This document shows positions 23,297-45,936 of a stretch of DNA of 64,000 nucleotides, piece after piece. The notes beneath the pieces are model-generated. The model did not search any database. It was not told the DNA's origin and saw only the letters and a program-made list of their open reading frames with translations. Position numbers and translations under genes: made by a program. Origin of the DNA: Candidatus Zhuqueibacterota bacterium (GTDB lineage Bacteria > Zhuqueibacterota > Zhuqueibacteria > Thermofontimicrobiales > Thermofontimicrobiaceae); NCBI GenBank assembly GCA_049322915.1, contig JBMOPW010000032.1, positions 128,001 to 192,000 of the forward strand, read 5' to 3'. The number at the start of each line of letters is the position of its first letter. The first letter of the stretch is position 1.

Positions 23297-23469
23297 AATG
23301 AAAGCAGGGAACAGTTACGGAGGCCAGTCAGGCCCAATCGACACCGGCGCTTGCCGGGCGCCTCATCTTTGTGGATGCCGGTTTGTGTTCCCCGGCTGAA
23401 TGAAAAACGCTGGAATGGATTGAAACAATCGCTATCAACAATGGAGTGAAATCAGAATTTGAGGTTTGT

Positions 23470-24726
23470 ATGAGATCGATATATCATTTATTTTTCTTAT
23501 GGATAGCACTCGTGAGTACAGCAACCGGGGCAATCGCGCAAACAGATAATGAAAGAGATCTGCCCCTGTTTAACTATGATATTGCGGTATTTCCCGGCGC
23601 GAACCAGGAGTTGGCAGAGTTTGAGCTGTTTGTGTGGGTGCGGAATACTGATTTACAGTTCATCAAAAAGGAAACCAGCTACGACGCCCGCTATCAGCTC
23701 AATACCAGCGTCTATGATAAAAATGGCGTTTCAATTTTCACCCAGGACAAAACGTACGAGGTTACCGAAGAGCTGTTCTCTTCGACCATCGACCCGGGCA
23801 TTAAACGGCCGCATGTATTCCGGGATGCGGTCCCGCCGGGCGAATACGTCGTGTCCATTCGGCTGTACGATTTGAATACCAATAAAAGCAGACATGCAGA
23901 GCAGTCCAAAACAGTGAAATTATTCGAGCCGGAGAAGCTCAACGTGAGCGATGTTCTGATATTGAACTCGTCGCAGATCGATTCTATTGATCTGAACAAT
24001 GTGATCCCGCCGCGCCATGTCCCGATTCAGGATCGGATATTTCTCTACGCTGAAATTGTGAATCCGGTCCAGGCTGATACATTTGATGTGGAAGCCACCC
24101 TGCAAACCGATGGTCAGATCAGCACATTCAATTTCTCAAAAAAAATGAAATTAATTGCCGACCGCCGGAAATTGCTGCTGGAAGTTTTGAAAGAAAATAT
24201 GCGGCAGGGAAGAAATTTATTCACTTTAAAAATCAACACCGGGAATCAGTCTATCTCCATACAAAAGGCAATTCGTTTTGTGACTGATGAGATGTCGTTC
24301 AGTTATGATTCAGTGGATGACATGGTCGGACCGCTATCCTATGTGGCCGATGGCGATGAATGGAAGCAATTGAAAAATGCGCAGGGCGCGAAGCGGGATA
24401 GCCTGTTTCAACAATTCTGGGATAAACGCAATCCCAATCCCGGGGCTCAGGACAATCCGTTGTATGACGAATTTTATAAACGGGTGCGGGTTGCCAATAA
24501 AAGCTTCACCAAGATGAAACGCGCCGGCTGGGTATCGGATCGCGGCCGCGTATACATTGTCTACGGCGCGCCCGATCGGATCAGTCGCAATGACCAGCAG
24601 GTTTATTCCCAGACTGTGTATGAAATCTGGTATTACGACACTCATCGCCTGGAATTTGTATTTGAAGACCGCTATGGTTTTGGCGATTACAAACTCGTCT
24701 CGGGAAATTTGAATCCATATTATTGA
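23470..24726 (+). CDS. GWxTD domain-containing exported protein
   Basis: Signal peptide; FWDKRNPNP...EFYKRVRVAN...GWVSDRGRVYIVYGAP...YEIWYY. Confidence 0.85.
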   Translation: MRSIYHLFFLWIALVSTATGAIAQTDNERDLPLFNYDIAVFPGANQELAEFELFVWVRNTDLQFIKKETSYDARYQLNTSVYDKNGVSIFTQDKTYEVTEELFSSTIDPGIKRPHVFRDAVPPGEYVVSIRLYDLNTNKSRHAEQSKTVKLFEPEKLNVSDVLILNSSQIDSIDLNNVIPPRHVPIQDRIFLYAEIVNPVQADTFDVEATLQTDGQISTFNFSKKMKLIADRRKLLLEVLKENMRQGRNLFTLKINTGNQSISIQKAIRFVTDEMSFSYDSVDDMVGPLSYVADGDEWKQLKNAQGAKRDSLFQQFWDKRNPNPGAQDNPLYDEFYKRVRVANKSFTKMKRAGWVSDRGRVYIVYGAPDRISRNDQQVYSQTVYEIWYYDTHRLEFVFEDRYGFGDYKLVSGNLNPYY

Positions 24727-31690: not shown

Positions 31691-32149
31691 GTGGTGGGTA
31701 AGAAAGATGATCAGGCAATTGCACGTTCCGGCGATCTGAACACAATTATTGGAAAAGGTTCCTCCATGGAAGGAGTTATCCGCGTGGAGAACAGTTTACG
31801 CGTTGATGGAAGAATCAAAGGAAATGTCACAGCATCAGATTCTCTTGTCATTGGCAAGGAAGGTGAAATCGAAGGTGAAATCATTGCTAAAAACGCCATC
31901 ATTGGTGGCAAAGTGCGCGGCCGAATCAGCGCATCGGGAAAAGTGGTTCTCGAATCCAAAGCATTATTTCAGGGCGAATTGAAAACTGCCCGTTTGATGA
32001 TTGATGACGGCGCCGTTTTTGATGGCCAATGCTCGATGCAGCAAGATGGCAAAATGCCGTTCGAGCCAAAAGTGAATCCGGTGGCAGGGAAATCAGGGCT
32101 GAGCGTTGCAGGAAGCAATCCTGCTTCTACAGAGGAGAAGAAGAAATAA
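31691..32149 (+). CDS. Bactofilin (polymer-forming cytoskeletal protein)
   Basis: TIIGKGSSMEG...LRVDG.IKG...IDDGAVFDGQC beta-helix pattern; GTG start after AAGGAG. Confidence 0.92.
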   Translation: MVGKKDDQAIARSGDLNTIIGKGSSMEGVIRVENSLRVDGRIKGNVTASDSLVIGKEGEIEGEIIAKNAIIGGKVRGRISASGKVVLESKALFQGELKTARLMIDDGAVFDGQCSMQQDGKMPFEPKVNPVAGKSGLSVAGSNPASTEEKKK

Positions 32150-32185
32150 CGCCTCGCTCTCAGATTTATAAATAATCTGTAATAT

Positions 32186-32267
32186 AAATCCTCTCGTGGT
32201 TTTCAAGCCATTCGATAGCGGTTATGACGGTCATCGATACTGCGAATTGAAAACCGCGAGAGGATTT
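32186..32267. repeat. 21-bp inverted repeat with 40-nt spacer (terminator or stabiliser-like)
   Basis: aaatcctctcgtggttttcaa ... ttgaaaaccgcgagaggattt. Confidence 0.7.
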
Positions 32268-32562
32268 CTGCATTAGTCTTATTTGAACAATGAGTTAACG
32301 TCCCCTTATCTTCAACCTTTATCCTGTCATATTGTTAACAAAAATTTAATCACTTTAAAATCGAAATTAGTTACAAAAAATTCATTGATTTTTTTATAAT
32401 ATTATTCTGCATTCTATTACTTGAATTGTACTAAAGAATCAGTATGTCATGCCGAAATAATAGTATCATTTCTCTGCCAGTCTCGTAATTCAAATAAATT
32501 ATGGTGATTATGAGAAAAAGGATTCTTTGCTTAGCTATTACAAAAATTTAAAAAAACTTTTA

Positions 32563-32591
32563 TTGACTAACAGGAAAAAAAGTTATATAAT
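32563..32591 (+). promoter_or_regulatory. Strong sigma70-type promoter for the TPR/Agl-Glt-like operon
   Basis: TTGACT-17-TATAAT preceded by an AT-rich UP-like tract. Confidence 0.75.
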
Positions 32592-32649
32592 TAGTAGGTG
32601 TTTTGGATAAACATCGCTGTGAAATGTAATATCATTCAAAGAGAAGATT

Positions 32650-35553
32650 ATGAGAAAGAAGAATATCATTTTAAGTTTTCTTATGTGGATCATGTTTTTT
32701 TCGTTCGATGCACCGGGTGTTACAGGGTCGGAACTGCCGGATAAATATAAAAAGGACGATGTGACAATCGATTTTGAATCGCGGTTGCGCTTCTACCTGG
32801 ATTTGAAGACCAAACGATTCATGCGAAAGATGGCAGTGAAGGAAGGCGCGTTGCTTGAGATGATACGCAGCGTGACTGATGAAGTTCGCATCCGTGGCAA
32901 GGCTGGATTTCTGGATGGCGACCCTGGTTTCAATTTGATCTACGGGAAAAGCAACAAGATTCTGGAAGAATTTGATGCTGAAATTGATTCGATAAAACAT
33001 ATTGTGAAGGAACTCGATAGGTTGGAATTGACCATTCAGCGGATGGAAGATCTCAAACTTTTGAAAGAGCTGGAACAAATCAAAGACCGATTGCTCACTG
33101 TGCTGGATGATCAAAAATTGGCCACAAAACAGTTGACGAAACAGCAAGTGGCCAGTATGATCGATGATTATTCCCATGAAATAAACCGCATCCTGAAAAT
33201 TTACGAGGAGATCGAAACCTTTCAGAAAAAAGCCAGGGGCTATGGTGATACAGAAATCGTGAAACAATTGGATCTGCAGAAACAGCACGTGATTCAAGTG
33301 CTCGAACAGAGTCGTATCGCCGGAACAGCGCCGGAGACAGTTGTCAATAGCTACATTGAGGAGGCGGCTTCAATTGTTGAAATTCTGCAACAGATCGATG
33401 ATCTGAATCAGAAGTTTGGCGTTGATTCGACAGTCAATACAGATGTTGAATCCGTGCGGGATAATATCATCGCCAATGTGGATGAACGCATATTCAAGCT
33501 GTTTGGCTATCAGACCGGGAAAGATTTCAGCGGCGTCACCATCTCTGAACACTTCAACACCTGGAAATCCGAGCGCATTGCCGAATATCAATTGAAGCTC
33601 ACGCAATACCAGATTCTCCGAAAGAGTCTGATTCAGTCCGCGACTCCGCAGGAGCGAAACCGTATGTTGGAGCGCGAGATTACAAACGCTCTGCTCAATT
33701 ACTCTGAAGAGCGATACGAGCTTTCGGAATTATTATTCGCTGATATTTATGAAGCCTATGGCGAATATTTCCCGAATCTCGATGGTGTGATTTTCTACAG
33801 AAGTGAAGCGAATTACGCCAATCATTATTATGATGAAGCTATGGCCGGGTATCAAAAACTTATAACCGATTTCCCCCAATCCCAGTATGTGGGGCAATGT
33901 AACCTGCGGGTGGCAATGATCCATTACACGTATGGCGAGAATAGCCAATTCTTCGATTATTATAATAAGGTCTGGAATTCCACTGGCATAGAACCGGAGG
34001 ATCTGAATAACCTCCACTATCTTGCCGGCTATCTGTACCTGACAGATAGGCGCTTCAAAGACGCAGAAGCTGTTTTGTTGAATATTAAAGAAGATTCAAA
34101 ATACTATATGGCGGCCCAATATTTGCAAGGGATTGTCTTGACGAATCTGGAAAAATTTACCCAGGCAAAGGCAATATTTGAGAAACTGACGGATCAGCAA
34201 AACTATCCGTGGACGGACCTGAATACATCCATCATACGAAATGAGTCGCTTCTGAAATTGGGCTATATTCACTACCAGCATGGAGAATATCAGAAAGCAA
34301 GTCAATATTTCGACATGGTTTCCAAGGGCTACGATAGATATGATTCCAGCTTGTTAGCCAAGGCCTGGACCAATCTCAAAAAGGGCGAGTACGAGAATGC
34401 CATTTCCAACGTGGACTTGATTTGCAACAATTACTTACTCTCAAATTACACGTATGAAGCCCTGGTGTTATCGGCGCATTGCAAGCGTATTCAGAATCGG
34501 ACTGATGAAGCGATCAAGGATTTTCAATATGTGACCAATGCAAAGTATATCCTCAACCAGGTTCAGGAATATAACAAAGAGCGCGAGCATATTTTACAGC
34601 AATTGGATGAACTGGAAGTCCTCGAAGAGGATATTTTTGAACATCAAAATCAGCGTCTCTATCCCGAAGTCGTTCGAATCCGGGATGTGATCAATGACGC
34701 CCTGGTTGCTTTTCGGTTTCGAGGCGCAGCGAGCAGCCGGATGTTGGAGGGATACAACGACGAGCGCAAAATTCTCATTCGTCAGATTGAGGAATTTGAG
34801 CGAATCATTGAAATAGCTGATGCTGAAGGCGATGAAGAAATGAAGAAAGATGCCCTCCAACAAAAGAAACGTCTGGTTGCAGCGTTGGAAAATTTTCAGA
34901 CAGAAGAGTCTGTCTCTGGCGCCGAATATTTCATGGATTATCCTCTGGCCACCAAAGAGGGTGGTATTATTTACCGTCGCGGTATTGTGCAGAAATTATT
35001 GAGTGAACTGCTGGTAGAGAAACAGCGGGTTCAGGACGATCTGATCATAGTTTCGGAATTGATGTCCATCAATGAGGATAAACCGCGCATGGATGCGGCA
35101 ATTGATTTGGAGATAATTGAAGAAGAATTGCACGACTTGCAAAATCAATTGAATCAGTTTCAGGTGTATTTAGCCAATCACCAGGTCGAGCAGATTCACA
35201 CAAATGCAGAGCATTGGGCCGACCTCTCAGGATTTGGCTTGAGTGATTTGAACTATATGTCATATCACGAGAGAACCAAAAAGATATCCAGCTATTCAAA
35301 AAACCTCAATGAGATTGATGCGGTATTAGGCCAAAAAAGAAAGAGTCTGGAGGAGCGGATTTGGCGGTTTGACAATGAAGTGAAGAAGATACAGAAGGAG
35401 ATGGAAGCGGAAAAGACACGGCTGGAAAAATTAGAGAAAGAAAAATATTTCCAGGAAATCTATTTCGAGACGAAATCGAATGAAATTGATCTTCAGACAA
35501 ATGAGGAGTTTGAGGAGTTGAACTTCGAGAATGAAAGTGGGAAGAAATTTTAA
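32650..35553 (+). CDS. Exported TPR and coiled-coil protein (GltC-like position in the cluster)
   Basis: Signal peptide; central TPRs (YDEAMAGYQKLITDFPQSQY, LLKLGYIHYQHGEYQKA, SLLAKAWTNLKKGEYENA); flanking heptad-rich helices. Confidence 0.75.
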   Translation: MRKKNIILSFLMWIMFFSFDAPGVTGSELPDKYKKDDVTIDFESRLRFYLDLKTKRFMRKMAVKEGALLEMIRSVTDEVRIRGKAGFLDGDPGFNLIYGKSNKILEEFDAEIDSIKHIVKELDRLELTIQRMEDLKLLKELEQIKDRLLTVLDDQKLATKQLTKQQVASMIDDYSHEINRILKIYEEIETFQKKARGYGDTEIVKQLDLQKQHVIQVLEQSRIAGTAPETVVNSYIEEAASIVEILQQIDDLNQKFGVDSTVNTDVESVRDNIIANVDERIFKLFGYQTGKDFSGVTISEHFNTWKSERIAEYQLKLTQYQILRKSLIQSATPQERNRMLEREITNALLNYSEERYELSELLFADIYEAYGEYFPNLDGVIFYRSEANYANHYYDEAMAGYQKLITDFPQSQYVGQCNLRVAMIHYTYGENSQFFDYYNKVWNSTGIEPEDLNNLHYLAGYLYLTDRRFKDAEAVLLNIKEDSKYYMAAQYLQGIVLTNLEKFTQAKAIFEKLTDQQNYPWTDLNTSIIRNESLLKLGYIHYQHGEYQKASQYFDMVSKGYDRYDSSLLAKAWTNLKKGEYENAISNVDLICNNYLLSNYTYEALVLSAHCKRIQNRTDEAIKDFQYVTNAKYILNQVQEYNKEREHILQQLDELEVLEEDIFEHQNQRLYPEVVRIRDVINDALVAFRFRGAASSRMLEGYNDERKILIRQIEEFERIIEIADAEGDEEMKKDALQQKKRLVAALENFQTEESVSGAEYFMDYPLATKEGGIIYRRGIVQKLLSELLVEKQRVQDDLIIVSELMSINEDKPRMDAAIDLEIIEEELHDLQNQLNQFQVYLANHQVEQIHTNAEHWADLSGFGLSDLNYMSYHERTKKISSYSKNLNEIDAVLGQKRKSLEERIWRFDNEVKKIQKEMEAEKTRLEKLEKEKYFQEIYFETKSNEIDLQTNEEFEELNFENESGKKF

Positions 35554-35583
35554 ATCAGGATGTTCACCTGATAGGGAAGGGAA

Positions 35584-38500
35584 ATGAAGAAGATAATTTT
35601 AATTGGCCTGTTTTTGGGGATGTTATTTTCGAGCCAACGGTGTTTTTCGCAACAGGAACCGCAAGAGGAAGGTCAGAAAAAAGCCGCGGTCGATTCGCTG
35701 ATCGATTCGTACTCGGTCGAGGATATTCTTAAATACCGGGAATACTATCAAAAACAGATCGAAAATATCACGGCTGAAAAGGTTGAGTTGCGCAAAAAGG
35801 GAATTCGCGATGCAGAAAAATTCCTTGAAAATAATCCGAATAGCAAGGTTCTGGATAAAGTGATGATGCGACTAGCCGAGTTGTATTATGAAGACGCCGA
35901 GGAGGAATTCATTCAGCAGATGCAGGCGTATGATCTGAAGTTAGAAGAGCTTGGCGATGCGCCAGCAGATACCACCCTTACGGAACCGGTAAAAAATTAT
36001 TCCAAGGCGTTAGGTCTGTACCAAATCATCATTGATGAATATCAACATAGCGAATTGTTAGACGATGCCTTATATAACAAAGCGTTCATCCTGGAGGAAA
36101 CGGGAAAAATTCAGGAAGCACTGACGATTTACAATTCAATCATCGCAGAATTCCAGGACAGTCGTTATGTACCCGAGTGTCTGATGCGAATTGCTGAGTA
36201 TTATTTCAATCCCCCAAAGAATGATATTGATACCGCCATCGACTATTATAAAAAAATTCTGGAATATAAAGATAGTCCCAAATATGACGAAGCCTTATAT
36301 CGTTTGGGCTGGTGCTATTATCGAAAGAGCGACTATCCTCTGGCAGTATCCTACTTCACCATTTTAGCTGACGATGTGCAGCGCGCCGGAGAGATCGATC
36401 CGGAGCAAAAGTTCTCCAATCCGGTGTTGCGCGATGAATCCATTGAATACATTGGTATCAGTTTTCTGGATTATGGCGGAACCGATCGGGCTGTGGATTA
36501 CCTGAATAGCATCGGCGGTCGTGACTATGGCGTGGATATTTTGAAGAAAATAGGCGATGTCTATTTGAACGAAAAGGAAATGTACGATCAGGCGGTTCAG
36601 GCTTATCAGACCTTGTTGAAGATGTACCCAGAAGATAAAGAAGCTCCGTTCATCCAGGATAAAATTGTGCTTTGCTACCGTCATCAGAATGATGATATGA
36701 TGGCCTACGTTGCCCGGGATAAACTATTCAACCATTACAAGCCGGGCAGCCCCTGGTGGCAGAATCAGCAAGATGAAACAATGAAGGAGAAAGTTTATGG
36801 TATAACGGAGCGTTCGTTACGCGATAATATCAATCTCCTTTTTCAACGCGCAGAAGCCGCCAATGATCAGGATCTGTACTTGCAGGCTGTCAACGATAGC
36901 CGGAAATATCTGAAATCGTTTGCCTCAGACAGCAGCGCGCCGCAAATTCATTGGAACATGGCGCTGACTCTGGATACCAAGCTGCATCAAACCGATGAAG
37001 CGTTTGAAGAGTACATGAAGATTTCCGATCTTTACTGGGGCAGCAAGTATCAAAAATATTCTGCTGAAAATTCCATCGCCCTGGCCAAAGATGCAGTGGA
37101 AACAGATACTTCGAAAAAGCAGATAGCGTCGGGAGAGACGGTCGCGGACTTGCAGAAAAAGGCCAGCAGTGTGCTGGAAGCGCTGGACTACGATCGCATG
37201 GAGTTCAGCGAGTACGAGAAGAAGTTATTGAGAGCTTATAATAATTATATCAAATTATTCCCCCATGAACCTGAGACCGCAACCATTCTGGCGAATGCCG
37301 GCGCTTTGAATTACAACAACAACCGGTTCCCGGAAGCGCTGCGGTATTTCAATACCATCATCAAACATTTCCCGGATAGCAAAGATGTGGATTACGCAAA
37401 ATACACCATCATGGAAAGTTATTTCGGGAAACGCGATTTTAAGAGCGCGGAAATCATCGCCAGAAATTTGAAGAACACCGAAGGCATCGATGCGAGTCTG
37501 GCGGATAAAGCGAAGAACCGATTGGCCGAATCCATTTTCCTCGCAGCAGAAGTGTTCGCAGATTCGGCGGATCATCTGCAGGCTGGCAATGAATATCTTC
37601 GCGTGGTCATGGAAGTCCCCAATGCAGAGTTTGCTGATCTGAGCGTTTTCAACGCGGCGCTGGAATATGACAAGGCCAAAGAATTCAGTCGCGCCGTGGA
37701 GACGTACAATTATCTGATCGAGACGCGACCCAATTCAAAATATCTGCTGGATGCCATGAATAACCTAGCCATCGATTACGGAGAACTGAAGGAATTCAAA
37801 AACGCGGCCCTGACGTATGAACGATTGGCGAATGCTGCCAAGGATTCCGCCCGGACCCACGATGCTTTATTCAATTCCAGCCTGTTCTTCGTGAAAGCGG
37901 AAGAATGGGAAGATGCCATTCGCATCAACCGGCAGTTTGTCCAGAAATATCCAAAGTCACAGGACGCCGATGATTTATTTTACGACATTGCCACTTATTA
38001 TTTGAAACTGGATGATCTGGATAAGGCAAATTCCCTCTATGGCGAATACGCCCAGTTATATCCCAATTCACCGCGCGTGATTGAAACATATTTCCATCGC
38101 GGTGAATATTATCGCAACAAGGACCTTCAGGCCCTGGCAAAGGGTGAATACGAAAAGGCAGTGGCCAAGAATACCGAATTTAAATCAAAGAATCTAGAGC
38201 AAAATGATTACTTCGCTGCAGAAGCGCTGTTTCAGTTAACACTACTGCATTTCGGTGAATTCAAAGCCATCGAATTCCAATTGCCGGTCGCGAAGATGGA
38301 ACAATCAAAATCACAAAAGCGGGGATTATTGATTAAGGTAGTGGATGGATTCACGCAGGTCGCGACGTTTGGAACGCTCCGATTGTACGAAGCAACATTT
38401 TATATCGGCGAGACCTATGATGAATTCGCCCGGTGCTGGGTGCGGCAGGAAATTCCTCAGATGGATGAAACCCGGCGCATCGTTACTCAGAAGGAAATCA

Positions 38501-40224
38501 ATAAAACCACGGCTGATCTGTACGAGAAAGCAGAGGAGTCCTACAAGCAAGCCGTGAGAATTCTGTCCCGCCTGGCGGATGAATATGAGCAGTCTCTGAT
38601 GACCGATTCGACAGCGCTGGCAGAAAACGAACTGACAAAGGTTGTTCGGGAAGATAGTACCCTGCGCGTGGCGCGCAAGTGGATCGATCGGAGCAAGGAG
38701 AAAATTTCCGAAGTCATTTATGATATTGCAGAGCTCAATTTTACTTCGGTGAATGGTTTTCTGGAAGCGCCCATTCCGGAAGGGCTGGATAATGTCGCTG
38801 AAATGGAGTACAGAAAACAAGTGCTGAGCAAAGCCATTGCTCCCTTGATTCAGGAAATTGTCGATGCCCATGTCCGCAATGTTCGCGAGGGCTGGAACCT
38901 GGGACTGGAAAACCAGTGGGTGAAATTATCCCGGCGTAAAATTCTCACGACAAGCAATTTGCTGGCATCCGAATATTATTCCTTGGCTGAGAAGTCACTC
39001 AGGCTGTACCGCGAGAGTTCAGAAAATTATATCAAAACGACCCAACAGGGTGGCTCCGCCGAAGGCCTGGATGCGACGACACTCTCGGATCAAATGGCAA
39101 ACCTGATCGACTTTACGCGGGCGTTTTCTGCGGTGACCGTTGAGATGTATCGAAAGACGCTGGAAAGGGCCGTTGAAGAGAATATCAACGATCCGAGTGT
39201 CTCTGAGACGAAAGAAATCATGCTAAAGGACCTTTATACGATCAGTCAGGAGTGCAGCGAACTTGAAAAAACCTGTCGGAACAATCGTAAGAATTATGAA
39301 AAGCAGTTCAAAGAGACTGATAAAATCGAATATGAAGATGCGCTGTTCACATACGAGGATAATTATTTTGCCTTCAGAGAGGCCAATAAGGAATTGTTGG
39401 AATTGGGCTACCAGATTGCACAGGACATGGAAATATCCAATCAGTGGGTTCCCAAAATTGTGCTGGCTCTGGTTCAGGCTAATCCCGAGGAATATGGCAA
39501 TCTGCTGAACCTGGAAGCGTCCACGACCCAGCATGCCACCAATGATAGCTGGAAAGCGACGACCCAATACACCGAGGGATGGACGCAACTCGAATTCAAT
39601 GACATCGACTGGTATACTGTTCAGCAGAAGTCGGGTGTGTTCCAGAATGCCGGCGAGGCGGATGTCGTTTGGCTTTCCGAGGTGGATACGACCGGGGTGG
39701 AATACGATACAACCGTAGTAACGGTACCAGTGATGACCGATACTTCCCTGAACGCCGAAGTTTTACCGGACTCATCGCTCAGCGACTCCAGCCGACTGGC
39801 TAACGAGACAAAATACGTTGTGACCACACGACACTGTATGGAGAATATCCCGGCGCGTCGGGTATTTTTCAGAAAGAAATTTTCTGTTACGGGTTTGCCG
39901 GTTTCTGCCGATATAAAAATAAAAGTGGATGATTCCTACAACTTGTTTTTGAACGGAGAATATGTGGCGGCGTTTGCCCAGGAAGACACGATGTCGGTGG
40001 ATCAGGAGCATTTTCATGAACTGACTGAAATTCTCGTCGAAGGCGATAATGTGCTGGCCATTGAGGGAATTGATAATAACGCCACCGGAGGTGGATTGGT
40101 AGCAGCGGTCTCGGTGAAAGCATTGCCGGAATGGAATGATAAAAAGCAGCAAATACAGATTGAGACAAGTGATATAAAAATTAAAAAGAATCTGGTGATG
40201 GATAAATACATTATCATGTATTAA
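35584..40224 (+). CDS. Large exported TPR protein (GltD/AgmU-like) with C-terminal jelly-roll sugar-binding-like domain
   Basis: Signal peptide; many TPRs (MRLAELYYE, MRIAEYYF, ALYRLGWCYYR, LRDESIEYIGISF); C-terminal FFRKKF...VDDSYNLFLNG...EGDNVLAI. Confidence 0.8.
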   Translation: MKKIILIGLFLGMLFSSQRCFSQQEPQEEGQKKAAVDSLIDSYSVEDILKYREYYQKQIENITAEKVELRKKGIRDAEKFLENNPNSKVLDKVMMRLAELYYEDAEEEFIQQMQAYDLKLEELGDAPADTTLTEPVKNYSKALGLYQIIIDEYQHSELLDDALYNKAFILEETGKIQEALTIYNSIIAEFQDSRYVPECLMRIAEYYFNPPKNDIDTAIDYYKKILEYKDSPKYDEALYRLGWCYYRKSDYPLAVSYFTILADDVQRAGEIDPEQKFSNPVLRDESIEYIGISFLDYGGTDRAVDYLNSIGGRDYGVDILKKIGDVYLNEKEMYDQAVQAYQTLLKMYPEDKEAPFIQDKIVLCYRHQNDDMMAYVARDKLFNHYKPGSPWWQNQQDETMKEKVYGITERSLRDNINLLFQRAEAANDQDLYLQAVNDSRKYLKSFASDSSAPQIHWNMALTLDTKLHQTDEAFEEYMKISDLYWGSKYQKYSAENSIALAKDAVETDTSKKQIASGETVADLQKKASSVLEALDYDRMEFSEYEKKLLRAYNNYIKLFPHEPETATILANAGALNYNNNRFPEALRYFNTIIKHFPDSKDVDYAKYTIMESYFGKRDFKSAEIIARNLKNTEGIDASLADKAKNRLAESIFLAAEVFADSADHLQAGNEYLRVVMEVPNAEFADLSVFNAALEYDKAKEFSRAVETYNYLIETRPNSKYLLDAMNNLAIDYGELKEFKNAALTYERLANAAKDSARTHDALFNSSLFFVKAEEWEDAIRINRQFVQKYPKSQDADDLFYDIATYYLKLDDLDKANSLYGEYAQLYPNSPRVIETYFHRGEYYRNKDLQALAKGEYEKAVAKNTEFKSKNLEQNDYFAAEALFQLTLLHFGEFKAIEFQLPVAKMEQSKSQKRGLLIKVVDGFTQVATFGTLRLYEATFYIGETYDEFARCWVRQEIPQMDETRRIVTQKEINKTTADLYEKAEESYKQAVRILSRLADEYEQSLMTDSTALAENELTKVVREDSTLRVARKWIDRSKEKISEVIYDIAELNFTSVNGFLEAPIPEGLDNVAEMEYRKQVLSKAIAPLIQEIVDAHVRNVREGWNLGLENQWVKLSRRKILTTSNLLASEYYSLAEKSLRLYRESSENYIKTTQQGGSAEGLDATTLSDQMANLIDFTRAFSAVTVEMYRKTLERAVEENINDPSVSETKEIMLKDLYTISQECSELEKTCRNNRKNYEKQFKETDKIEYEDALFTYEDNYFAFREANKELLELGYQIAQDMEISNQWVPKIVLALVQANPEEYGNLLNLEASTTQHATNDSWKATTQYTEGWTQLEFNDIDWYTVQQKSGVFQNAGEADVVWLSEVDTTGVEYDTTVVTVPVMTDTSLNAEVLPDSSLSDSSRLANETKYVVTTRHCMENIPARRVFFRKKFSVTGLPVSADIKIKVDDSYNLFLNGEYVAAFAQEDTMSVDQEHFHELTEILVEGDNVLAIEGIDNNATGGGLVAAVSVKALPEWNDKKQQIQIETSDIKIKKNLVMDKYIIMY

Positions 40225-40237
40225 GAGGTGGTGTTTC

Positions 40238-40657
40238 ATGACTCGATGGAAAAAAGGAACATGGATTTTTTATGCTGCGTGGCTGTGCGTTTGTTCACCC
40301 GTAATAGTCACGGCCCAGGTAAGCAATCAGAATGCCAGTTCGGTCAATTCAGCCCGGGCAAAACAGGATTCAACGCTGCGCGTTATGGCTGATTCACTGG
40401 CATCATTGGGTGATGAAATTGAACTGCTGGAAATCAGCATCGAAGCTGTGATCGAAAAACCTCGAGTGTCAATTCTTCCGAAACGAGTCGAACCGGCATT
40501 AGGCGAGATGGATTTCGTTGACCGGTCCTTTGAAAGCGAACTGAAGCAGGTTCCTGATAAGCCCATGGTAACGGATGAACGTCTCTACACACCAAAGAAA
40601 ATTGAAAATCTTAAAGCGAAACTTCTTTCAAAGAAGAGAGAATTGGAGAAAAAGTAA
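40238..40657 (+). CDS. Small exported protein, GltF/CglF-like
   Basis: Signal peptide; IEAVIEKPRVSILPKR...DRSFESEL resembles the GltF-like pattern; lies between the TPR genes and the motor genes. Confidence 0.6.
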   Translation: MTRWKKGTWIFYAAWLCVCSPVIVTAQVSNQNASSVNSARAKQDSTLRVMADSLASLGDEIELLEISIEAVIEKPRVSILPKRVEPALGEMDFVDRSFESELKQVPDKPMVTDERLYTPKKIENLKAKLLSKKRELEKK

Positions 40658-40671
40658 AGTTCTAAAACACG

Positions 40672-40753
40672 AGAAAGACCTTCCCTTTTCATTTTGAGAA
40701 ATTCAGTCAGCATGAATAACAACCGTGGAGAAATTTCCAGGGGAGGTCTTTCT
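40672..40753. repeat. 15-bp inverted repeat with long spacer upstream of the MotA/TolQ gene
   Basis: agaaagaccttccct ... aggggaggtctttct. Confidence 0.55.
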
Positions 40754-40813
40754 ATTTTAATCAGTTAACAAAGAAATAATTTACATGTAACTTAAATCAA
40801 TGATGGAGGTAGT

Positions 40814-41467
40814 ATGATTGGTGAAGTATTAAAAGGGTTTGCCACCACAGAGATGGGATGGGGATTCATGTGGGTCCTCTTGCTTTTCTTCATCGTTATG
40901 GTTGCTGTTGCCATTGAACGTGCGTATTACATCATGGTGCGGTCCAATATCAACGCGCCGCGATTCATGTCCGAGATTCGGAAGTTGGTGAAAGCCGGCG
41001 ATTACAAGAAAGCATTGTCCCTGTGCAGTTCCGCCCGGAACAAAGCTCTGGCCCAGGTTGTAGCTGCTGGTTTGAAAAAAGTGAGCGAAAGTGAAACGAT
41101 TGATTTTCGCTCCATTCAGAATTCGGTGGATGAAGGCACTCTGGAAGTGATTCCCAAGCTTCAGGATAGGACGTCCTATCTGGCAATGATTGCCAACATT
41201 GCAACACTGACCGGTCTGATGGGAACCATCTATGGCCTCATCGGAGCATTCAGAGCGGTATCAGCGCCTGGAATCGATGCCACTGAAAAATCCCGAATGC
41301 TGGCTTCGGGTATTGCAGTTGCTATGAACACAACACTGGTGGGTCTGGCAATTGCGATTCCAGCCATTCTTATTTACACGTATTTGCAGAGCAAGACTGT
41401 AAAAATCATCGATGAAATCGATGAGCATACGGTGAAGTTAATTAACCTAATTACAGGGAATCAATAA
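40814..41467 (+). CDS. MotA/TolQ/ExbB proton-channel protein (AglR-like)
   Basis: Three TM segments; IANIATLTGLMGTIYGLI; GIAVAMNTTLVGLAIAIP. Confidence 0.92.
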   Translation: MIGEVLKGFATTEMGWGFMWVLLLFFIVMVAVAIERAYYIMVRSNINAPRFMSEIRKLVKAGDYKKALSLCSSARNKALAQVVAAGLKKVSESETIDFRSIQNSVDEGTLEVIPKLQDRTSYLAMIANIATLTGLMGTIYGLIGAFRAVSAPGIDATEKSRMLASGIAVAMNTTLVGLAIAIPAILIYTYLQSKTVKIIDEIDEHTVKLINLITGNQ

Positions 41468-41469
41468 CA

Positions 41470-42006
41470 ATGGCTTTCAGACCTTCATTCAGAAGAAATG
41501 TAACTCAAGAGGAAGCGGAATTAAATATGACTCCGGTGATGAATTTAATGGTCTGTCTCATCCCATTACTTCTCACATCGGCTCAATTCATAAAAATTGG
41601 GATCATCGATTTGAATTTGCCGCCAGCCATTGGCGCTTCAGTGAGTCAGATGGAAGCGCCAAAAGAGACCGAGAAAAAGTTGGATCTGGCTGTGACCATT
41701 ACAGATGAAGGCTTTTTTATCTCAAGTTCCCTTGCTATTTTACGAGGGAGTGAGGGCGAAGGGCCTTCCATTCCGTTGATGACAGATGGCGAATACAATT
41801 TTGTGGAGTTATCCAATAAGTTATATGAATTGAAGCGCAAGGCGATTGGTAACTTCTCGGATACGGAGAAAATTGTCATTCAGGCAGAACCGGAAATTAA
41901 TTACCAACTGGTAGTGAATACGCTGGATGCCGCCCGTAACATTTCGGTGGAAGGGAAAACTTTCTCACTGTTTCCGGAAGTATCTCTGGCCGCTGGAGTC
42001 ATTTAA
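41470..42006 (+). CDS. ExbD/TolR family protein (AglS-like; TM Asp replaced by Asn)
   Basis: ELNMTPVMNLMVCLIPLLL TM segment; C-terminal AEPEINYQLVVNTLDAAR...LFPEV. Confidence 0.85.
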   Translation: MAFRPSFRRNVTQEEAELNMTPVMNLMVCLIPLLLTSAQFIKIGIIDLNLPPAIGASVSQMEAPKETEKKLDLAVTITDEGFFISSSLAILRGSEGEGPSIPLMTDGEYNFVELSNKLYELKRKAIGNFSDTEKIVIQAEPEINYQLVVNTLDAARNISVEGKTFSLFPEVSLAAGVI

Positions 42007-42137
42007 TTTCAGAAGTCCCGGAAGTCGTCCTGACCAAAACCAAACTGGGTTGAAACATCAGCCACAGCACGTGGAGGTTTTGTGCGTTCGCACTTCTTGT
42101 GATGAATTGAGGCCGGGACGATTCAAGTATATTTAAG

Positions 42138-42153
42138 TGGCACATTCCATGCA
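42138..42153 (+). promoter_or_regulatory. Possible internal sigma54 promoter
   Basis: TGGCACATTCCATGCA (GG-N10-GC) in a 200-bp gap, about 53 bp before ATG 42206. Confidence 0.35.
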
Positions 42154-42205
42154 AATTAGAAGAAATTTAATGCAGAAACAATTACATTTATAATTGGAGA
42201 AGCTA

Positions 42206-42700
42206 ATGGCTTTTATACCTTCTCGAATCAAAAAACATGACACAAATGCCGGAGCAGTCAAAGTCAATTTAACATCGATGATGGATATGTTCACAATAAT
42301 CCTTGTGTTCCTGTTGAAAACATTTTCAGCGGAAGGATCGCTCATCCAACCATCGGAGTATCTGACTTTGCCGCACTCAGGCACAGAAAAACAGCCTGAA
42401 ATAGCTCTGGATGTTGTTGTGTCCAAGGAATGGATCATGGTGAACCATGAACCAGTTGAAAAGGTGAGCAATGTTCAAAACCAGAGAAGTTTGATCATCA
42501 AAAATCTTCAGGATAAATTATCCGTCTATGCCCGGGAGTCCAGGCGAATGGAAGAATTACATGGGATCAAGTTCTCCGGCAAGGTAGCCATACAGGGGGA
42601 CAAGGAAATCCCTTACAGTCTGTTAGTTAAGGTGATGGCGACATGTGGAAAATCAGATTATCCGAATATGCGACTGGTTGTGTATAAAAAGGGAGAGTAA
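42206..42700 (+). CDS. ExbD/TolR family protein (AglQ-like)
   Basis: NLTSMMDMFTIILVFLLKTFS with conserved Asp; IQGDKEIPYSLLVKVMATC. Confidence 0.88.
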   Translation: MAFIPSRIKKHDTNAGAVKVNLTSMMDMFTIILVFLLKTFSAEGSLIQPSEYLTLPHSGTEKQPEIALDVVVSKEWIMVNHEPVEKVSNVQNQRSLIIKNLQDKLSVYARESRRMEELHGIKFSGKVAIQGDKEIPYSLLVKVMATCGKSDYPNMRLVVYKKGE

Positions 42701-42718
42701 CTGGAAGATTTGGAATAA

Positions 42719-43906
42719 ATGGACGAGGTCGATGTGAACAATCAAGGTAAAAATCCGCCGTTGGAGAAGAACGGAGACATTGGTTCGGATGCGAGCGCAT
42801 CAACCGGCGATATCTACGCATCTGGATATTTTCCAAAAGAGTTCGAACGACGATGGAGTGATTTAATTGATAAGCGATACTATACGATATTATTAATCAC
42901 TTTCGTTGTCAATTTTTCCATTGTTTTTTATTATTCGTTAAATCCGCCGGTGATAAATGTCGAAGCTGAAAGCGCCCGAATTCAGCAGCAGTATGCGCGT
43001 CTGGTGCTGGATAAAACCGAGCCGCTGGAAGAACCTGCCGAAAAAACAGAAGCTCTGCCAGTGGAGGAATTGAAAAGTGATAAAACTGTAGCTGGCAGTG
43101 GCGGAGAAGGCAGTGGTAGCGGCAGTGGATCGGGAGATGAAAAAGCCGAACAGGCTGCTGAGACTCGGGTTGGAACAGTCGAGTCGCGTCGTGCTGATTA
43201 TTCTTCGGAAACTGAAAAACGCCGTACATCCCGCGAGCAAATTTCCCGCGAAGTGAGTTCCAAAGGCTTATTGGGTTTGCTCACCAGCGATGGCGGAACA
43301 GCCACGGGCGAGGGGGTGGCGGACGTGCTGGGTGATGCCGGCTCTGGAAGCCAGAAAAATCTGGATGAGGTTTTGGGCAATCTCGATGGGCTAAAAACAA
43401 CGGGCCAATCAACCTCAGGGTCTGGCGGTTCTGGCACAGGCTCCGGTTCAGGTGACCGATCGCAACGCGGCGGACGCGCAGCCGGGGGTGGTGGCATTGA
43501 TGATTTGATCAGCGGAAAGGAAGAGGCAAAATCAGCCCAGATTTCCCGCAAAGGAAATATTGTCGTTGAAAAGGTTTCTTCCATCGCCGACGAAAAAGGC
43601 ATCAAGTCGGAGAGTCGCGATGCGGACAAAGTGTCCGAAGTGATCAACGCGCACAACGCCGCCATTCAATATTGTTATCAGAGAGAACTCAAACAAAATC
43701 CTGATCTGAAAGGTAAGCTGGTGGTCCGATTCACGATTATGCCCAATGGCAAAACAACGAATGTGAAAATTGTATCGTCCACATTGAACAATTCGCGTGT
43801 GGAACGCTGTATCATCAGTCGGATCGAGCGATGGGACGATTTCGGCGTCATCGATGCATCCAAGGGAGACGCCACATTTAGACAGGTTTATACATTCGGG
43901 TATTGA
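42719..43906 (+). CDS. TonB-like energy transducer with AgmX/PglI-type C-terminal domain (GltG-like)
   Basis: Single TM, long Gly/Ser linker, C-terminal IQYCYQRELKQNPDLKGKLVVRFTI...SSTLNNSRVERCI...W. Confidence 0.85.
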   Translation: MDEVDVNNQGKNPPLEKNGDIGSDASASTGDIYASGYFPKEFERRWSDLIDKRYYTILLITFVVNFSIVFYYSLNPPVINVEAESARIQQQYARLVLDKTEPLEEPAEKTEALPVEELKSDKTVAGSGGEGSGSGSGSGDEKAEQAAETRVGTVESRRADYSSETEKRRTSREQISREVSSKGLLGLLTSDGGTATGEGVADVLGDAGSGSQKNLDEVLGNLDGLKTTGQSTSGSGGSGTGSGSGDRSQRGGRAAGGGGIDDLISGKEEAKSAQISRKGNIVVEKVSSIADEKGIKSESRDADKVSEVINAHNAAIQYCYQRELKQNPDLKGKLVVRFTIMPNGKTTNVKIVSSTLNNSRVERCIISRIERWDDFGVIDASKGDATFRQVYTFGY

Positions 43907-44004
43907 TGAAGCCTTACAGTTCGTACCCAATAGATTTGGTCTCGTGGCGGTTGACCTGATCATTCCATCCTCGTCATTTATAAAACATTTATATTCTGCA
44001 AATT

Positions 44005-44039
44005 AAGTCGCTGGATATTTTATCCGGCGATTTTTTTTT
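44005..44039 (+). terminator. Rho-independent terminator closing the Agl-Glt-like operon
   Basis: aagtcgctggata-ttt-tatccggcga followed by T9. Confidence 0.8.
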
Positions 44040-44148
44040 GGATTATCAGTATGAAAATGAAATTGATATTGATTTTACTAAATAATTTAGTTAAATTGAA
44101 CGTTCAAAATTGGGGTGTAACAACTATCTCTGAAAAAGGAAATTTGCA

Positions 44149-45936
44149 TTGAAAACGCTTTTCATGGAAAAACGAACGCACCACTGCGGAGATCTGAGGG
44201 GAGCCCACGCCGGACAATCAGTCGTCCTGCAAGGATGGGTAAGTCGCCGACGGGATCACGGTAATTTAATCTTTATTGATCTTCGCGATATTCACGGCAT
44301 CACCCAAATTGTATTTGACCCGATTGAGAGAGATTCTGCTTACTCTGCGGCGAAAGAGTTGAAGCAGGAGTATGTCATTAGCGTAACCGGTCAGGTGAGG
44401 CTGCGGCCGGAGGGCATGGTCAATGAAAATATGGCGACCGGGGAGATTGAAGTTCTGGCCACCGGGATCAGCGTGTTAAACCCTTCGAAGACACCGCCAT
44501 TTCTCATCGTGGACAATGTGGATGCCACCGAAGAGTTGAGATTCCGCTATCGTTATCTGGATTTGCGTCGGCCTGAAATGCAGAAGAGCTTAATCGTACG
44601 GCATCGCGTCGCCCAGATTGTGAGGCGCGCGCTGGATGAACAGGGATTCCTCGAAATCGAGACGCCATTTCTGATGCGCAGCACCCCCGAAGGCGCGCGT
44701 GATTTTCTCATCCCGAGTCGCATGCATCGAGGGAAGTTTTATGCCCTTCCTCAGTCGCCGCAAACGTACAAACAGGTATTGATGATTGCTGGCTATGATA
44801 AATATTTTCAGATTGTCAAATGTTTCCGTGATGAGGATTTTCGCTCCGAACGACAGCCTGAATTTACCCAGATTGATATTGAAATGTCGTTCGTCGATGA
44901 ATACGATATTCGTCAGGTCACTGAAGGACTGGTTAGGAAAATTTTTAAGGACATCGTCCAGGTCGAGTTTAAGACACCTTTCCCAGTGTTGACCTATGAA
45001 ATGGCGATGGCGAAGTACGGGTCCGATAAGCCGGACCTTCGCTTCGGTTTGGAAATTCACGACCTGAGTCACATTGTAGCCTGCAGTGAATTCAAAGTAT
45101 TTTCAGGGACAGTGGCGGATGGTGGAATTATTGCAGCGGTGAATCTTAAAGGCAGAGCCGACTATTCCCGGAAGCAAATTGATGAACTAAATCTGTTCAT
45201 CCAGAATATGGGCGGGAAGGGTGTGTTGACGGCGAAAGTCAAAGAGAACGATGTAGAAGGGTCATTCCGAAAATTCCTTTCCGATGCGATGGTCTCCGAG
45301 ATGCTCAGGGTGATGGGCGGCGAGTCCGGCGATTTGTTGATACTCATCGCGGGTAGTCGGGCTGCCACGCTGGATATGCTGGGGCGGTTGCGTTTAAAAC
45401 TGGGAAAAGACGAAGGACTGATCGATTCCAATTCCTTTTCTCCGCTGTGGGTGATTGATTTTCCATTATTGGAATACAGTGAGGAAGAGCAGCGATTTAT
45501 CGCCATGCATCATCCGTTCACTTCGCCGAAGGTTGAAGATATTGAATTATTTGAAAAAGATCCATTACAGATGAAAGCCCGGGCGTACGATTTAGTCATC
45601 AATGGATACGAGATCGCCGGGGGGAGCATCAGAAATTATATATATGAAAACCAGATGAAGGTTTTCTCATTGCTCAAGATTGATGAAGCCGAAGCCCAGA
45701 GCAAATTCGGATTTTTACTGGATGCTTTGCAATATGGCGCGCCACCGCACGGCGGCATCGCTTTTGGCTTTGACCGGCTGGTGATGCTGTTGGCCGGGAA
45801 AAATTCCATTCGGGATGTGATCGCATTCCCGAAAACGACGAGCGCACTGTCACTCATGGACAATTCACCGGCAGAGGTCGATGACGCGCAACTTCGAGAA
45901 TTGGGCTTGAAGGTGGTTGACAAAGAGCAGCCATAA
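44149..45936 (+). CDS. aspS: Aspartate--tRNA ligase
   Basis: RRDHG, FIDLRD, YRYLDLRR, LPQSPQ, CFRDED..RQPEFTQ, YGAPPHGGIAFG, IAFPKT. Confidence 0.97.
   Translation: MKTLFMEKRTHHCGDLRGAHAGQSVVLQGWVSRRRDHGNLIFIDLRDIHGITQIVFDPIERDSAYSAAKELKQEYVISVTGQVRLRPEGMVNENMATGEIEVLATGISVLNPSKTPPFLIVDNVDATEELRFRYRYLDLRRPEMQKSLIVRHRVAQIVRRALDEQGFLEIETPFLMRSTPEGARDFLIPSRMHRGKFYALPQSPQTYKQVLMIAGYDKYFQIVKCFRDEDFRSERQPEFTQIDIEMSFVDEYDIRQVTEGLVRKIFKDIVQVEFKTPFPVLTYEMAMAKYGSDKPDLRFGLEIHDLSHIVACSEFKVFSGTVADGGIIAAVNLKGRADYSRKQIDELNLFIQNMGGKGVLTAKVKENDVEGSFRKFLSDAMVSEMLRVMGGESGDLLILIAGSRAATLDMLGRLRLKLGKDEGLIDSNSFSPLWVIDFPLLEYSEEEQRFIAMHHPFTSPKVEDIELFEKDPLQMKARAYDLVINGYEIAGGSIRNYIYENQMKVFSLLKIDEAEAQSKFGFLLDALQYGAPPHGGIAFGFDRLVMLLAGKNSIRDVIAFPKTTSALSLMDNSPAEVDDAQLRELGLKVVDKEQP

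Follow-up and report, generated by a model that had tools for sequence, protein, structure and literature searches.

What kind of machine is encoded by a seven-gene operon of an uncultured, KSB1-type Candidatus Zhuqueibacterota bacterium in which a TolQ/ExbB-type motor stands beside two giant tetratricopeptide repeat (TPR) proteins, and what could it be for? The operon lies on contig JBMOPW010000032.1 (assembly GCA_049322915.1), within the 64,000-nt stretch from 128,001 to 192,000 that is called the window here and whose own numbering is used throughout. Seven co-directional open reading frames (ORFs) occupy 32563-44039 of its + strand, with a promoter-like site at the front and a terminator-like hairpin at the end, and encode, in order, proteins resembling GltC, GltD, GltF, AglR, AglQ, AglS and GltG of Myxococcus. 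A first-pass annotation of the sequence had likened this set to the Agl-Glt machinery and proposed that, in a role not yet known, it works as a motor or as a trafficking machine of the envelope driven by proton motive force (PMF), which is as far as the evidence goes. We are highly confident that the operon encodes a machine of the Agl/Glt core type, and a PMF-driven envelope machine of the Agl/Glt core family is probably the best explanation of the locus as a whole. The operon is a lineage-specific variant of the ‘core complex’ already described by Luciano et al. (2011; PMC3169522), an operon made up in their account of the Group B genes gltC, gltD, gltE, gltG, aglR, aglQ and aglS.

The fourth ORF (40814..41467, 217 aa) encodes an AglR-like putative proton-channel subunit of the TolQ/ExbB/MotA family (Pfam MotA_ExbB, 88 bits; cut-off 22.9), and the fifth (AglQ-like; 41470..42006, 178 aa) and sixth (AglS-like; 42194..42700, 168 aa, or possibly 164 aa from an alternative ATG at 42206) encode ExbD/TolR-family subunits (Pfam ExbD, 52.2 and 53.6 bits, respectively; cut-off 25.4). 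Scores against the equivalog models are far lower than the cut-offs, at 66.8 bits for TolQ (cut-off 221) and 48.7 for ExbB (cut-off 206) in the former, and 25-26 bits for TolR (cut-off 127) and 28.7 for ExbD_2 (cut-off 123) in the ExbD-like proteins. Nine MotA/ExbB-family genes are present both in the genome that carries the operon (6.25 Mb, 96% complete) and in the complete genome of Myxococcus sp. Y35, taken as reference. In the latter, examination of gene neighbourhoods distinguished one TolQ-TolR-TolA-TolB cluster, TonB-linked ExbBD sets and two divergent trios of one ExbB and two ExbD genes without TonB. One trio (L108; 245/173/193 aa) probably corresponds to MXAN_3003-3005, the paralogous ‘M2’ motor, by comparison of gene lengths with Table S3 of PMC3169522, and the other (L107; 245/163/218 aa) is, by elimination, presumably aglRQS.

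In a maximum likelihood tree of 34 ExbB-family proteins (supports given as ultrafast bootstrap/SH-aLRT), 18 operon proteins (from the window, 16 orthologues and a second operon in the same genome) share one clade with the two Agl-type proteins of Myxococcus (97/98). Seven other paralogues from the same genome and seven from Myxococcus fall outside, including TolQ of the TolQRAB cluster and the TonB-linked ExbBs. The ExbD-family tree (46 proteins) likewise unites the operon proteins with those of the Myxococcus Agl-type trios (99/94), to the exclusion of the other TolR and ExbD proteins of both genomes. Within this clade the operons' second ExbD groups with the AglS-type (second) genes of the two trios (100/99), and their first ExbD with the AglQ-type (first) genes (83/85). 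The existence of separate AglS-type and AglQ-type subclades implies that the AglQ/AglS duplication took place before these lineages split, and argues strongly that the motor as a whole is of common descent. The view that the TolQ-like protein and both ExbD/TolR paralogues are of Agl type, rather than ordinary ExbB/TolQ and ExbD/TolR proteins, is thus borne out. The annotation had staked its comparison on two points, and on both the outcome was in its favour: the motor proteins group apart from ordinary ExbBD and TolQR, and similarity to GltG and GltF was found, as described below.

The seventh ORF (42719..43906) encodes a 395-aa GltG-like protein, predicted to be a bitopic force transducer, that ends in CYQRELKQNPDLKGK and matches the NCBIfam ‘AgmX/PglI C-terminal domain’ model NF033768 well above its curated cut-off (93.6 bits; cut-off 40), so the GltG/AgmX-type C-terminal domain recognised in the first-pass annotation stands. 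The protein has a cytoplasmic N-terminus of ~55 aa, one transmembrane-like segment (56-74), a linker with Gly, Ser and Glu as its most frequent residues and Pro outside the eight commonest, and the C-terminal domain (~298-395). No FHA domain is present in the window protein, again as annotated, the cytoplasmic part being only ~55 aa. The C-terminal domain (298-395) is modelled by AlphaFold2 with a predicted local distance difference test score (pLDDT) of ~90. In a wide VIA-align search TonB/TolA C-terminal domains made up nine of the ten top matches (Z 6.4-7.4), with 6i97_E as the best match (root mean square deviation 2.7 over 85 residues) and TolA domain III (1tol_A) at Z 7.4. Sequence matches to Pfam TonB_C (19.4 bits; cut-off 24.6) and TIGR01352 (24.9; cut-off 27.1) are both under cut-off.

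Two further membrane proteins in the same genome carry an AgmX/PglI domain above cut-off without adjoining motor genes (C12:50328-51581, 417 aa; C16:267202-268374, 390 aa), and similar stand-alone genes are found in relatives (L066-L073 and L078). These orphan genes suggest several transducers per motor, as several TonBs share one ExbBD. In a metagenome-assembled genome (MAG) labelled Caldithrix sp. the AgmX/PglI-type domain ends a 1528-aa ORF (L062:5705-10291) rather than a protein of ~390 aa.

The third ORF (40238..40657) encodes a small protein (139 aa) with a signal-peptide-like N-terminus and no Pfam family. It has a conserved core, L-x-E-I-x-I-E-A-V-I-E-K-P-x-V-x-I-L-P-K-R ... R-S-F, and aligns with Myxococcota small proteins encoded directly upstream of GltG-like genes (hhalign 91.9%, E 6.9e-7, 49 columns). 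Searched against 3,753 ORFs, a hidden Markov model (HMM) of the family found 6/6 such proteins (E 3e-8 to 5e-4) and, besides them, two weak cross-matches; the reverse search, from the Myxococcota small proteins to the GltF-like protein, was also positive. One of the Myxococcus small proteins upstream of a GltG-like gene matches NCBIfam CglF at 32 bits (cut-off 90), and CglF is the same protein as GltF according to PMC4488436. The alignment and the reciprocal HMM matches uphold the earlier identification of 40238-40657 as a GltF relative, the family of which comprises 255 representative clusters at E<=1e-3. Complex prediction for the GltG-like C-terminal domain with the GltF-like protein gave a score of 0.35 (best of three controls, 0.00), with at least 87% of contacts shared between runs and a pLDDT of at least 44 for the partner. 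The mark applied to such predictions is reached by 116/157 solved complexes and 2/215 mismatched pairs, and at scores of 0.60 or less it is reached by only 18 of the 157 and by both mismatches. The model thus weakly suggests that the two proteins are in contact.

The first two ORFs encode proteins assigned by Pfam to TPR families, and their N-termini, like that of the GltF-like protein, are hydrophobic as in signal peptides. The GltD (AgmU)-like protein (35584..40224, 1546 aa) aligns colinearly (BLASTP E 4e-81, 26% identity over 966 residues) with a GltD paralogue of 1112 aa from Myxococcus sp. Y35, its residues 55-987 matching 85-1036 there, which was judged to be far beyond repeat similarity. 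This paralogue (L088) matches MXAN_1922 in size and position and sits in a cluster like MXAN_1919-1923. The window protein continues into a C-terminal extension of ~500 aa, and its last 547 aa match no Pfam family at E<=0.01; fusion of GltE to GltD was considered and rejected, the best match of this part to the Myxococcus GltE-like protein having an E of 23. A profile of the last 230 aa (22 orthologues) searched against PDB sequences matched the rhamnosidase 3w5m (E 1.9e-14) and the lectins 6kbj, 6t0q and 6t1d (E 4e-11 to 2e-10). The AlphaFold2 model of the domain (mean pLDDT 82.2, predicted TM-score 0.70) retrieved GH2 sugar-binding, rhamnosidase and PA14 domains with Foldseek (E 7e-5 to 1e-3). 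From profile and model together, the GltD-like protein is predicted to end in a lectin-like beta-sandwich, similar to a carbohydrate-binding module (39676..40125, ~residues 1365-1514), followed by a terminal helix.

The GltC-like protein (32650..35553, 967 aa) is a TPR/coiled-coil protein, probably exported, with an N-terminal hydrophobic segment at residues 6-24, and its gene is the first of the operon, as gltC is in published core complexes. Single-sequence BLASTP gave a weak match (E 6e-9 over only 102 aa), and a profile of 16 orthologues aligned with three Myxococcota GltC-like proteins over 305 columns (hhalign 99.2%, E 7.3e-20). Both TPR proteins have their best NCBIfam match in the TPR module of YbgF/CpoB, at 57 and 104 bits. 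None of the seven ORFs is GltE-like, in line with the first-pass annotation, which saw no such lipoprotein in the operon.

Among 80 related loci, 42 have all seven genes colinear and on one strand; 11 others carry five or six of the genes, with contig ends or broken ORFs, 15 have the GltG-like gene only, and the remaining 12 are either Myxococcota clusters or incomplete in other ways. Six of the genes keep the same order in all of 14 additional genomes from the phylum, and the GltF-like gene was detected in 13/14. The seven-gene arrangement is not due to chance, and the synteny expected in related genomes is there. Homologues of the GltG-like protein are named as KSB1 or Calditrichaeota proteins by their sources, and the closest loci are labelled candidate division KSB1, Candidatus Zhuqueibacter, Calditrichota or ‘uncultured Cytophagia’. 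KSB1 is placed in the Fibrobacteres-Chlorobi-Bacteroidetes (FCB) superphylum in PMC11683472, and PMC3169522 states that the Agl/Glt machinery is not conserved in Bacteroidetes. With the phylum as delimited by the genome library, an AglS-like gene was found in 151/167 genomes (149/165 without the unpublished genomes G159 and G163), 99/105 high-quality genomes and 94/100 genera, many genomes having a second, weaker match. In a neighbouring phylum, that of a MAG labelled Latescibacterota, only 4/81 sampled genomes gave an AglS-like match. The core is kept by vertical descent almost throughout an FCB phylum and is not a sporadic acquisition there, and this near-universal presence argues for a basic envelope function.

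A second, paralogous operon of the Glt-core type is found in the same genome (C4:34495-42548; L008:10496-18549, minus strand), encoding TPR proteins of 483 and 988 aa, a small protein (144 aa), ExbB (208 aa), two ExbD proteins (156 aa, with Asn at the Asp position discussed below, and 169 aa) and a GltG-like protein (456 aa). Its two ExbD proteins adjoin the presumed Myxococcus AglQ and AglS in the trees. The GltG-like protein of this operon has an extra N-terminal stretch of ~100 aa that is FHA-like by eye only; an FHA domain in this extension, or in a 645-aa GltG-like protein of Myxococcaceae, was rejected on finding no Pfam match at E<=0.01. Upstream of this second operon is a 344-aa ORF that matches no family, and ~1.4 kb from the end of the operon, on the opposite strand, is a separate ExbB-ExbD-ExbD trio (C4:31618-33138; L008:7619-9139) that falls outside the Agl clade in the tree.

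Comparison of the window operon with the published core complex shows the same plan. According to Luciano et al. (PMC3169522), the core is carried by several Gammaproteobacteria, one betaproteobacterium, Geobacter and Fibrobacter succinogenes, mostly non-gliders, and includes one extra small gene, reportedly without homologues in the Myxococcales. Locus tags in their Table S3 run in the order C, D, E, X, R, Q, S, G (Gura_3077-3070, Sde_2961-2954), and in Fibrobacter C, D, R, (?), S, G (Fisuc_1892-1897), with no GltE listed. The same table includes the core CJA_3312-3319, the extra small gene being Gura_3074, Sde_2958 and CJA_3316 in the respective cores, and gives two homologues of Saccharophagus the annotation ‘cellulose binding, type IV’. 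A single operon in the order C-D-(small)-R-Q-S-G, a short GltG without FHA and a lack of outer-membrane Glt parts are shared with the window, where the order is C-like, D-like, F-like, R, Q, S, G, and the Fibrobacter version also has no GltE. The earlier description of the operon as a stripped-down variant is consequently not borne out, as its layout is that of the core complex of PMC3169522, and the missing GltA/B/H barrels and FHA domain are the normal state of such a core.

Differences from the core complex are nonetheless evident, with unusual points compared against Myxococcus sequences and published tables and the proteobacterial cores taken by description. The window operon lacks GltE, and the small gene before aglR is GltF-like, a type classed in PMC3169522 as restricted to Myxococcales and Bdellovibrionales. 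The GltD-like protein is ~500 aa longer, with a lectin-like end, the AglQ-like subunit has Asn, and operons of this type are near-universal in one FCB phylum, where two paralogous operons are often present. In the literature consulted, including the Zhuqueibacterota paper and the Caldithrix abyssi genome paper, no Agl/Glt system was found for KSB1/Zhuqueibacterota or Calditrichota. Near-universal presence in a phylum, a second paralogous operon, a GltF-like gene in the core, an AglQ-like subunit with Asn, a GltD-like protein with a lectin-like end and the lack of GltE were likewise not found in print.

With the complete Agl-Glt gliding machinery (AglRQS plus GltA-K) the operon shares seven homologous parts, separately orthologous AglQ and AglS and an AgmX/PglI transducer. 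It differs in having no FHA link to a cytoplasmic platform, in scoring under the GltG, GltC and GltJ equivalog cut-offs, and in being contained in one operon instead of the three clusters of M. xanthus. Of the Group A genes of the gliding machinery (gltA, B, F, H, I, J and K) a gltF-like one is present; the operon and its surroundings yielded no gene for GltA, B, H, I, J or K, nor one for GltE (a genome-wide search was not made for GltA, B, I and K). Agl-Nfs, which transports glycan strands of the spore coat (Wartel et al. 2013, PMC3858216), also pairs an Agl-type motor with a GltD/NfsD-type scaffold and a GltG/NfsG-type transducer, and acts on glycan, not on the substratum; the lectin-like domain suggests that the window operon may have such a role too. 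Nfs differs, however, in having outer-membrane NfsA, B, C and H and in borrowing an AglRQS motor encoded elsewhere.

Several points weigh against placing the operon in the Agl/Glt core family, or against particular steps in doing so. The GltG-like protein scores 86.4 bits against the GltG equivalog (cut-off 650), the GltC-like protein 47.7 bits (E 9.9e-13) against that of GltC (cut-off 450), and the score for the GltJ equivalog is 42 bits (cut-off 450), so that these are relatives of the M. xanthus proteins, not equivalents. TPR repeats can inflate similarity, and the GltC-like match is confined to the TPR core. In the phylogenies, the Myxococcus reference clusters were identified only via gene lengths and elimination, their rows are long branches (1.35-2.3) flagged as unsure by the tree tool, and the AglQ-type subclade has the lowest support of those described. 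No outer-membrane partner is encoded in the operon, and the predicted sugar-binding fold of the GltD-like protein is not proof of a bound sugar. Finally, the residue at the key position of the AglQ-like subunit could mean that the motor works differently or more weakly than its Myxococcus counterpart.

This residue is Asn (Asn25 in the window) where the family has its proton-carrying Asp. Asn is found at the position in 54/55 orthologues from the loci, as well as in the window and in the second operon of the genome, while the equivalent position of the AglS-like protein is Asp in 57/57 orthologues (transmembrane Asp31 in the window). In Myxococcus all four Agl-type ExbD proteins, from both trios, have Asp. 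In M. xanthus the AglQ D28N mutation, which puts Asn at this position, is reported to abolish proton conductance and paralyse the machine (PMC3858216).

Taken together, these features can be accommodated in a PMF-driven machine that would reach from the inner membrane into the periplasm. By analogy, the AglR-like subunits would form a TolQ/ExbB-type channel ring. Solved ExbB-ExbD and related stators have a 5:2 stoichiometry. The ring would surround a heterodimeric plug of one AglQ-like and one AglS-like protein, if the same stoichiometry applies. As only the AglS-like subunit keeps a protonatable Asp, proton flow is predicted to follow one asymmetric path, and this flow would move the membrane helix of the GltG-like protein, with a long, flexible, Gly/Ser-rich tether taking the TonB-like domain into the periplasm. 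In M. xanthus, AglR binds GltG in two-hybrid assays (PMC3169522; PMC3858216). The TonB-like domain might then engage a periplasmic scaffold in which the two giant TPR proteins, GltD-like and GltC-like, are joined by the small protein of GltF type. The lectin-like end of the GltD-like protein suggests that this scaffold could hold glycan, either peptidoglycan or a polysaccharide being exported, and the machine may thus serve to move or organise a polymer of the envelope rather than to drive gliding, much as Agl-Nfs acts on the glycan of the spore coat. That it handles glycan is possible, if doubtful. Near-universal presence in the phylum favours a basic role in the envelope, for example in handling a polymer of the wall or surface or setting it in order, and this is the role favoured here over gliding, Tol-Pal-like tethering and TonB-like energising.

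A Tol-Pal/CpoB analogue, i.e. a housekeeping PMF system tying the outer membrane to the wall and coordinating envelope constriction at division, seems unlikely. The operon does resemble Tol-Pal with CpoB (YbgF) in its TolQ/TolR-family motor, its bitopic TolA/TonB-like transducer and its periplasmic TPR modules, for which YbgF/CpoB is the best match in both proteins (57 and 104 bits, as above), and the transducer domain is as close to TolA domain III (1tol_A, Z 7.4) as to TonB. Near-universal presence in the phylum would also be expected of a housekeeping system. However, the motor proteins lie outside the clade of Myxococcus TolQ and TolR, two distinct ExbD paralogues are present, there is no TolB or Pal in the operon, and the TPR proteins are four to six times the size of CpoB. 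No TolB or Pal equivalog scores above cut-off anywhere in the genome, as would suit an analogue taking their place, but the same models fail in a Bacteroides control too, so that absence of TolB and Pal from the genome is not established (tblastn with Myxococcus TolB gave propeller-repeat matches only). Other ExbB-ExbD-TonB-like trios, such as the one beside sprA on C4, could serve as TolQRA. The parA, parB, M23 peptidase and bactofilin genes upstream of the window operon are in that position in only 2/14 genomes, which leaves no conserved link to division genes.

The TonB-like fold of the GltG-like C-terminal domain would equally suit an energiser of outer-membrane transport or secretion, in which this domain pulls a TonB-box-like strand of a barrel encoded elsewhere, and such a role was speculated on for the core complex by Islam et al.; the two orphan AgmX-domain transducers would be in keeping with the several TonBs that can serve one ExbBD. 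We consider this rather improbable. Although the motor superfamily and C-terminal fold are those of ExbB-ExbD-TonB, the ExbB/ExbD equivalog scores are far under cut-off, TonB_C (19.4 against 24.6) and TIGR01352 (24.9 against 27.1) are not reached, and the linker is Gly/Ser-rich, not Pro-rich. The two giant TPR proteins have no part in classical TonB systems. No TonB-dependent receptor is associated with the window operon, and neither the window nor any of the 42 complete loci has a TonB-dependent transporter or other barrel within or beside the operon, as judged from seven query proteins only. Myxococcus-type gliding motility, which the homology of all seven parts to Agl/Glt proteins and an MglB-like gene beside a small GTPase gene elsewhere in the genome might bring to mind, is a very improbable function. 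Luciano et al. (PMC3169522) state that core genes, found mostly in non-gliders, are insufficient for gliding on their own, and they call the core's function unknown. The window GltG-like protein lacks an FHA domain, there is no GltJ-grade protein (42 bits against 450), and no outer-membrane Glt parts are nearby; the lack of any CglE/GltH family match counts weakly, as the control genomes were silent as well. Polymer handling by a machine of the Agl/Glt core family is thus preferred to each of these three, at the strength given above.

The promoter-like site, seven genes and terminator-like site of the first-pass annotation are confirmed in every particular. The predicted promoter is a sigma-70-type site (32563..32591, + strand; TTGACT-17 nt-TATAAT, 11/12 matches), the best of 30 sites within 32000-44300, 59 nt before the first start codon. 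The intrinsic-terminator-like hairpin (44005..44033, + strand; 13 pairs, of which five are G-C, loop of 3, then TTTTTTTGGAT), with its T run after the stem, is the strongest of 20 sites in the region. Between the GltF-like gene and the AglR-like one, a spacer of 156 nt (40658-40813) contains a 13-pair G+C-rich hairpin, GAAAGACCUUCCC...GGGGAGGUCUUUC, followed by UAUUUU, which may be an internal attenuator setting the ratio of scaffold to motor transcripts. A 187-nt non-coding spacer (42007-42193) separates the AglQ-like and AglS-like genes; by ORF coordinates this gap is of similar length in L012, L014, L016, L037 and L053, and ~30 nt in other relatives. The idea that the two spacers are mobile elements was rejected, as each occurs once in the genome.

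By Pfam, the operon is preceded by parA, parB, an M23 peptidase gene and a bactofilin gene and followed by aspS, which is downstream in 8/14 genomes; a link to chromosome partition or cytoskeleton genes was rejected on the 2/14 count given above. Further upstream, at 20204-24726 of the window, the gene for a GWxTD-domain protein comes after one encoding 1030 aa with PD40 (TolB-like) propeller repeats. Elsewhere in the genome, C14:319340-326587 (L112) encodes a 1042-aa protein with six YbgF-like TPR stretches (270 bits), a 265-aa ExbB-like protein and two DUF4159 proteins. The MglB-like gene mentioned above (C14:71509-72657; L115:691-1839, minus strand) encodes a Roadblock protein (NF052242, 82 bits; cut-off 200) and is followed by a gene for a 194-aa small GTPase (small_GTP, 25 bits), possibly making an MglBA-type polarity pair; nothing ties this pair to the operon. 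A type IX secretion system (T9SS) SprA translocon gene adjoins an ExbB-ExbD-TonB-like trio on C4. GldL (TIGR03513) and CglE (NF033755) models found no match in this genome or in any control genome.

If the favoured role is taken to its full extent, the Glt core of this phylum could be a housekeeping glycan conveyor with an asymmetric stator, a reading that is improbable. In it, the AglQ-like protein would be a non-conducting structural plug, with protons passing only by way of the AglS-like protein; the GltF-like protein would be an ancestral part of the core, with its beta-strand motif acting as a TonB-box-like handle pulled by the GltG-like domain; and this pull would move the scaffold, the lectin-like tip of which would hold peptidoglycan or an exported polysaccharide. 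Were this true, the ‘extra small gene’ of proteobacterial cores would likewise be a divergent gltF, and the whole Agl/Glt family would at first have served polymer handling, not motility.

The presence of a GltF-type protein in the core by itself shifts GltF from a ‘recent myxobacterial addition’ towards an ‘ancestral part’. A stator in which one plug subunit is naturally without the proton-carrying Asp is a natural experiment on heteromeric 5:2 stators, and the lectin-like domain predicted on the GltD-type scaffold provides a testable lead to a glycan substrate. What the core complex does outside Myxococcus has been an open question since 2011, and its function was still called unknown, with speculation about secretion, in a 2020 preprint (10.1101/2020.07.22.216333). 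The operon described here, kept almost throughout a phylum of the FCB superphylum, bears directly on that question.

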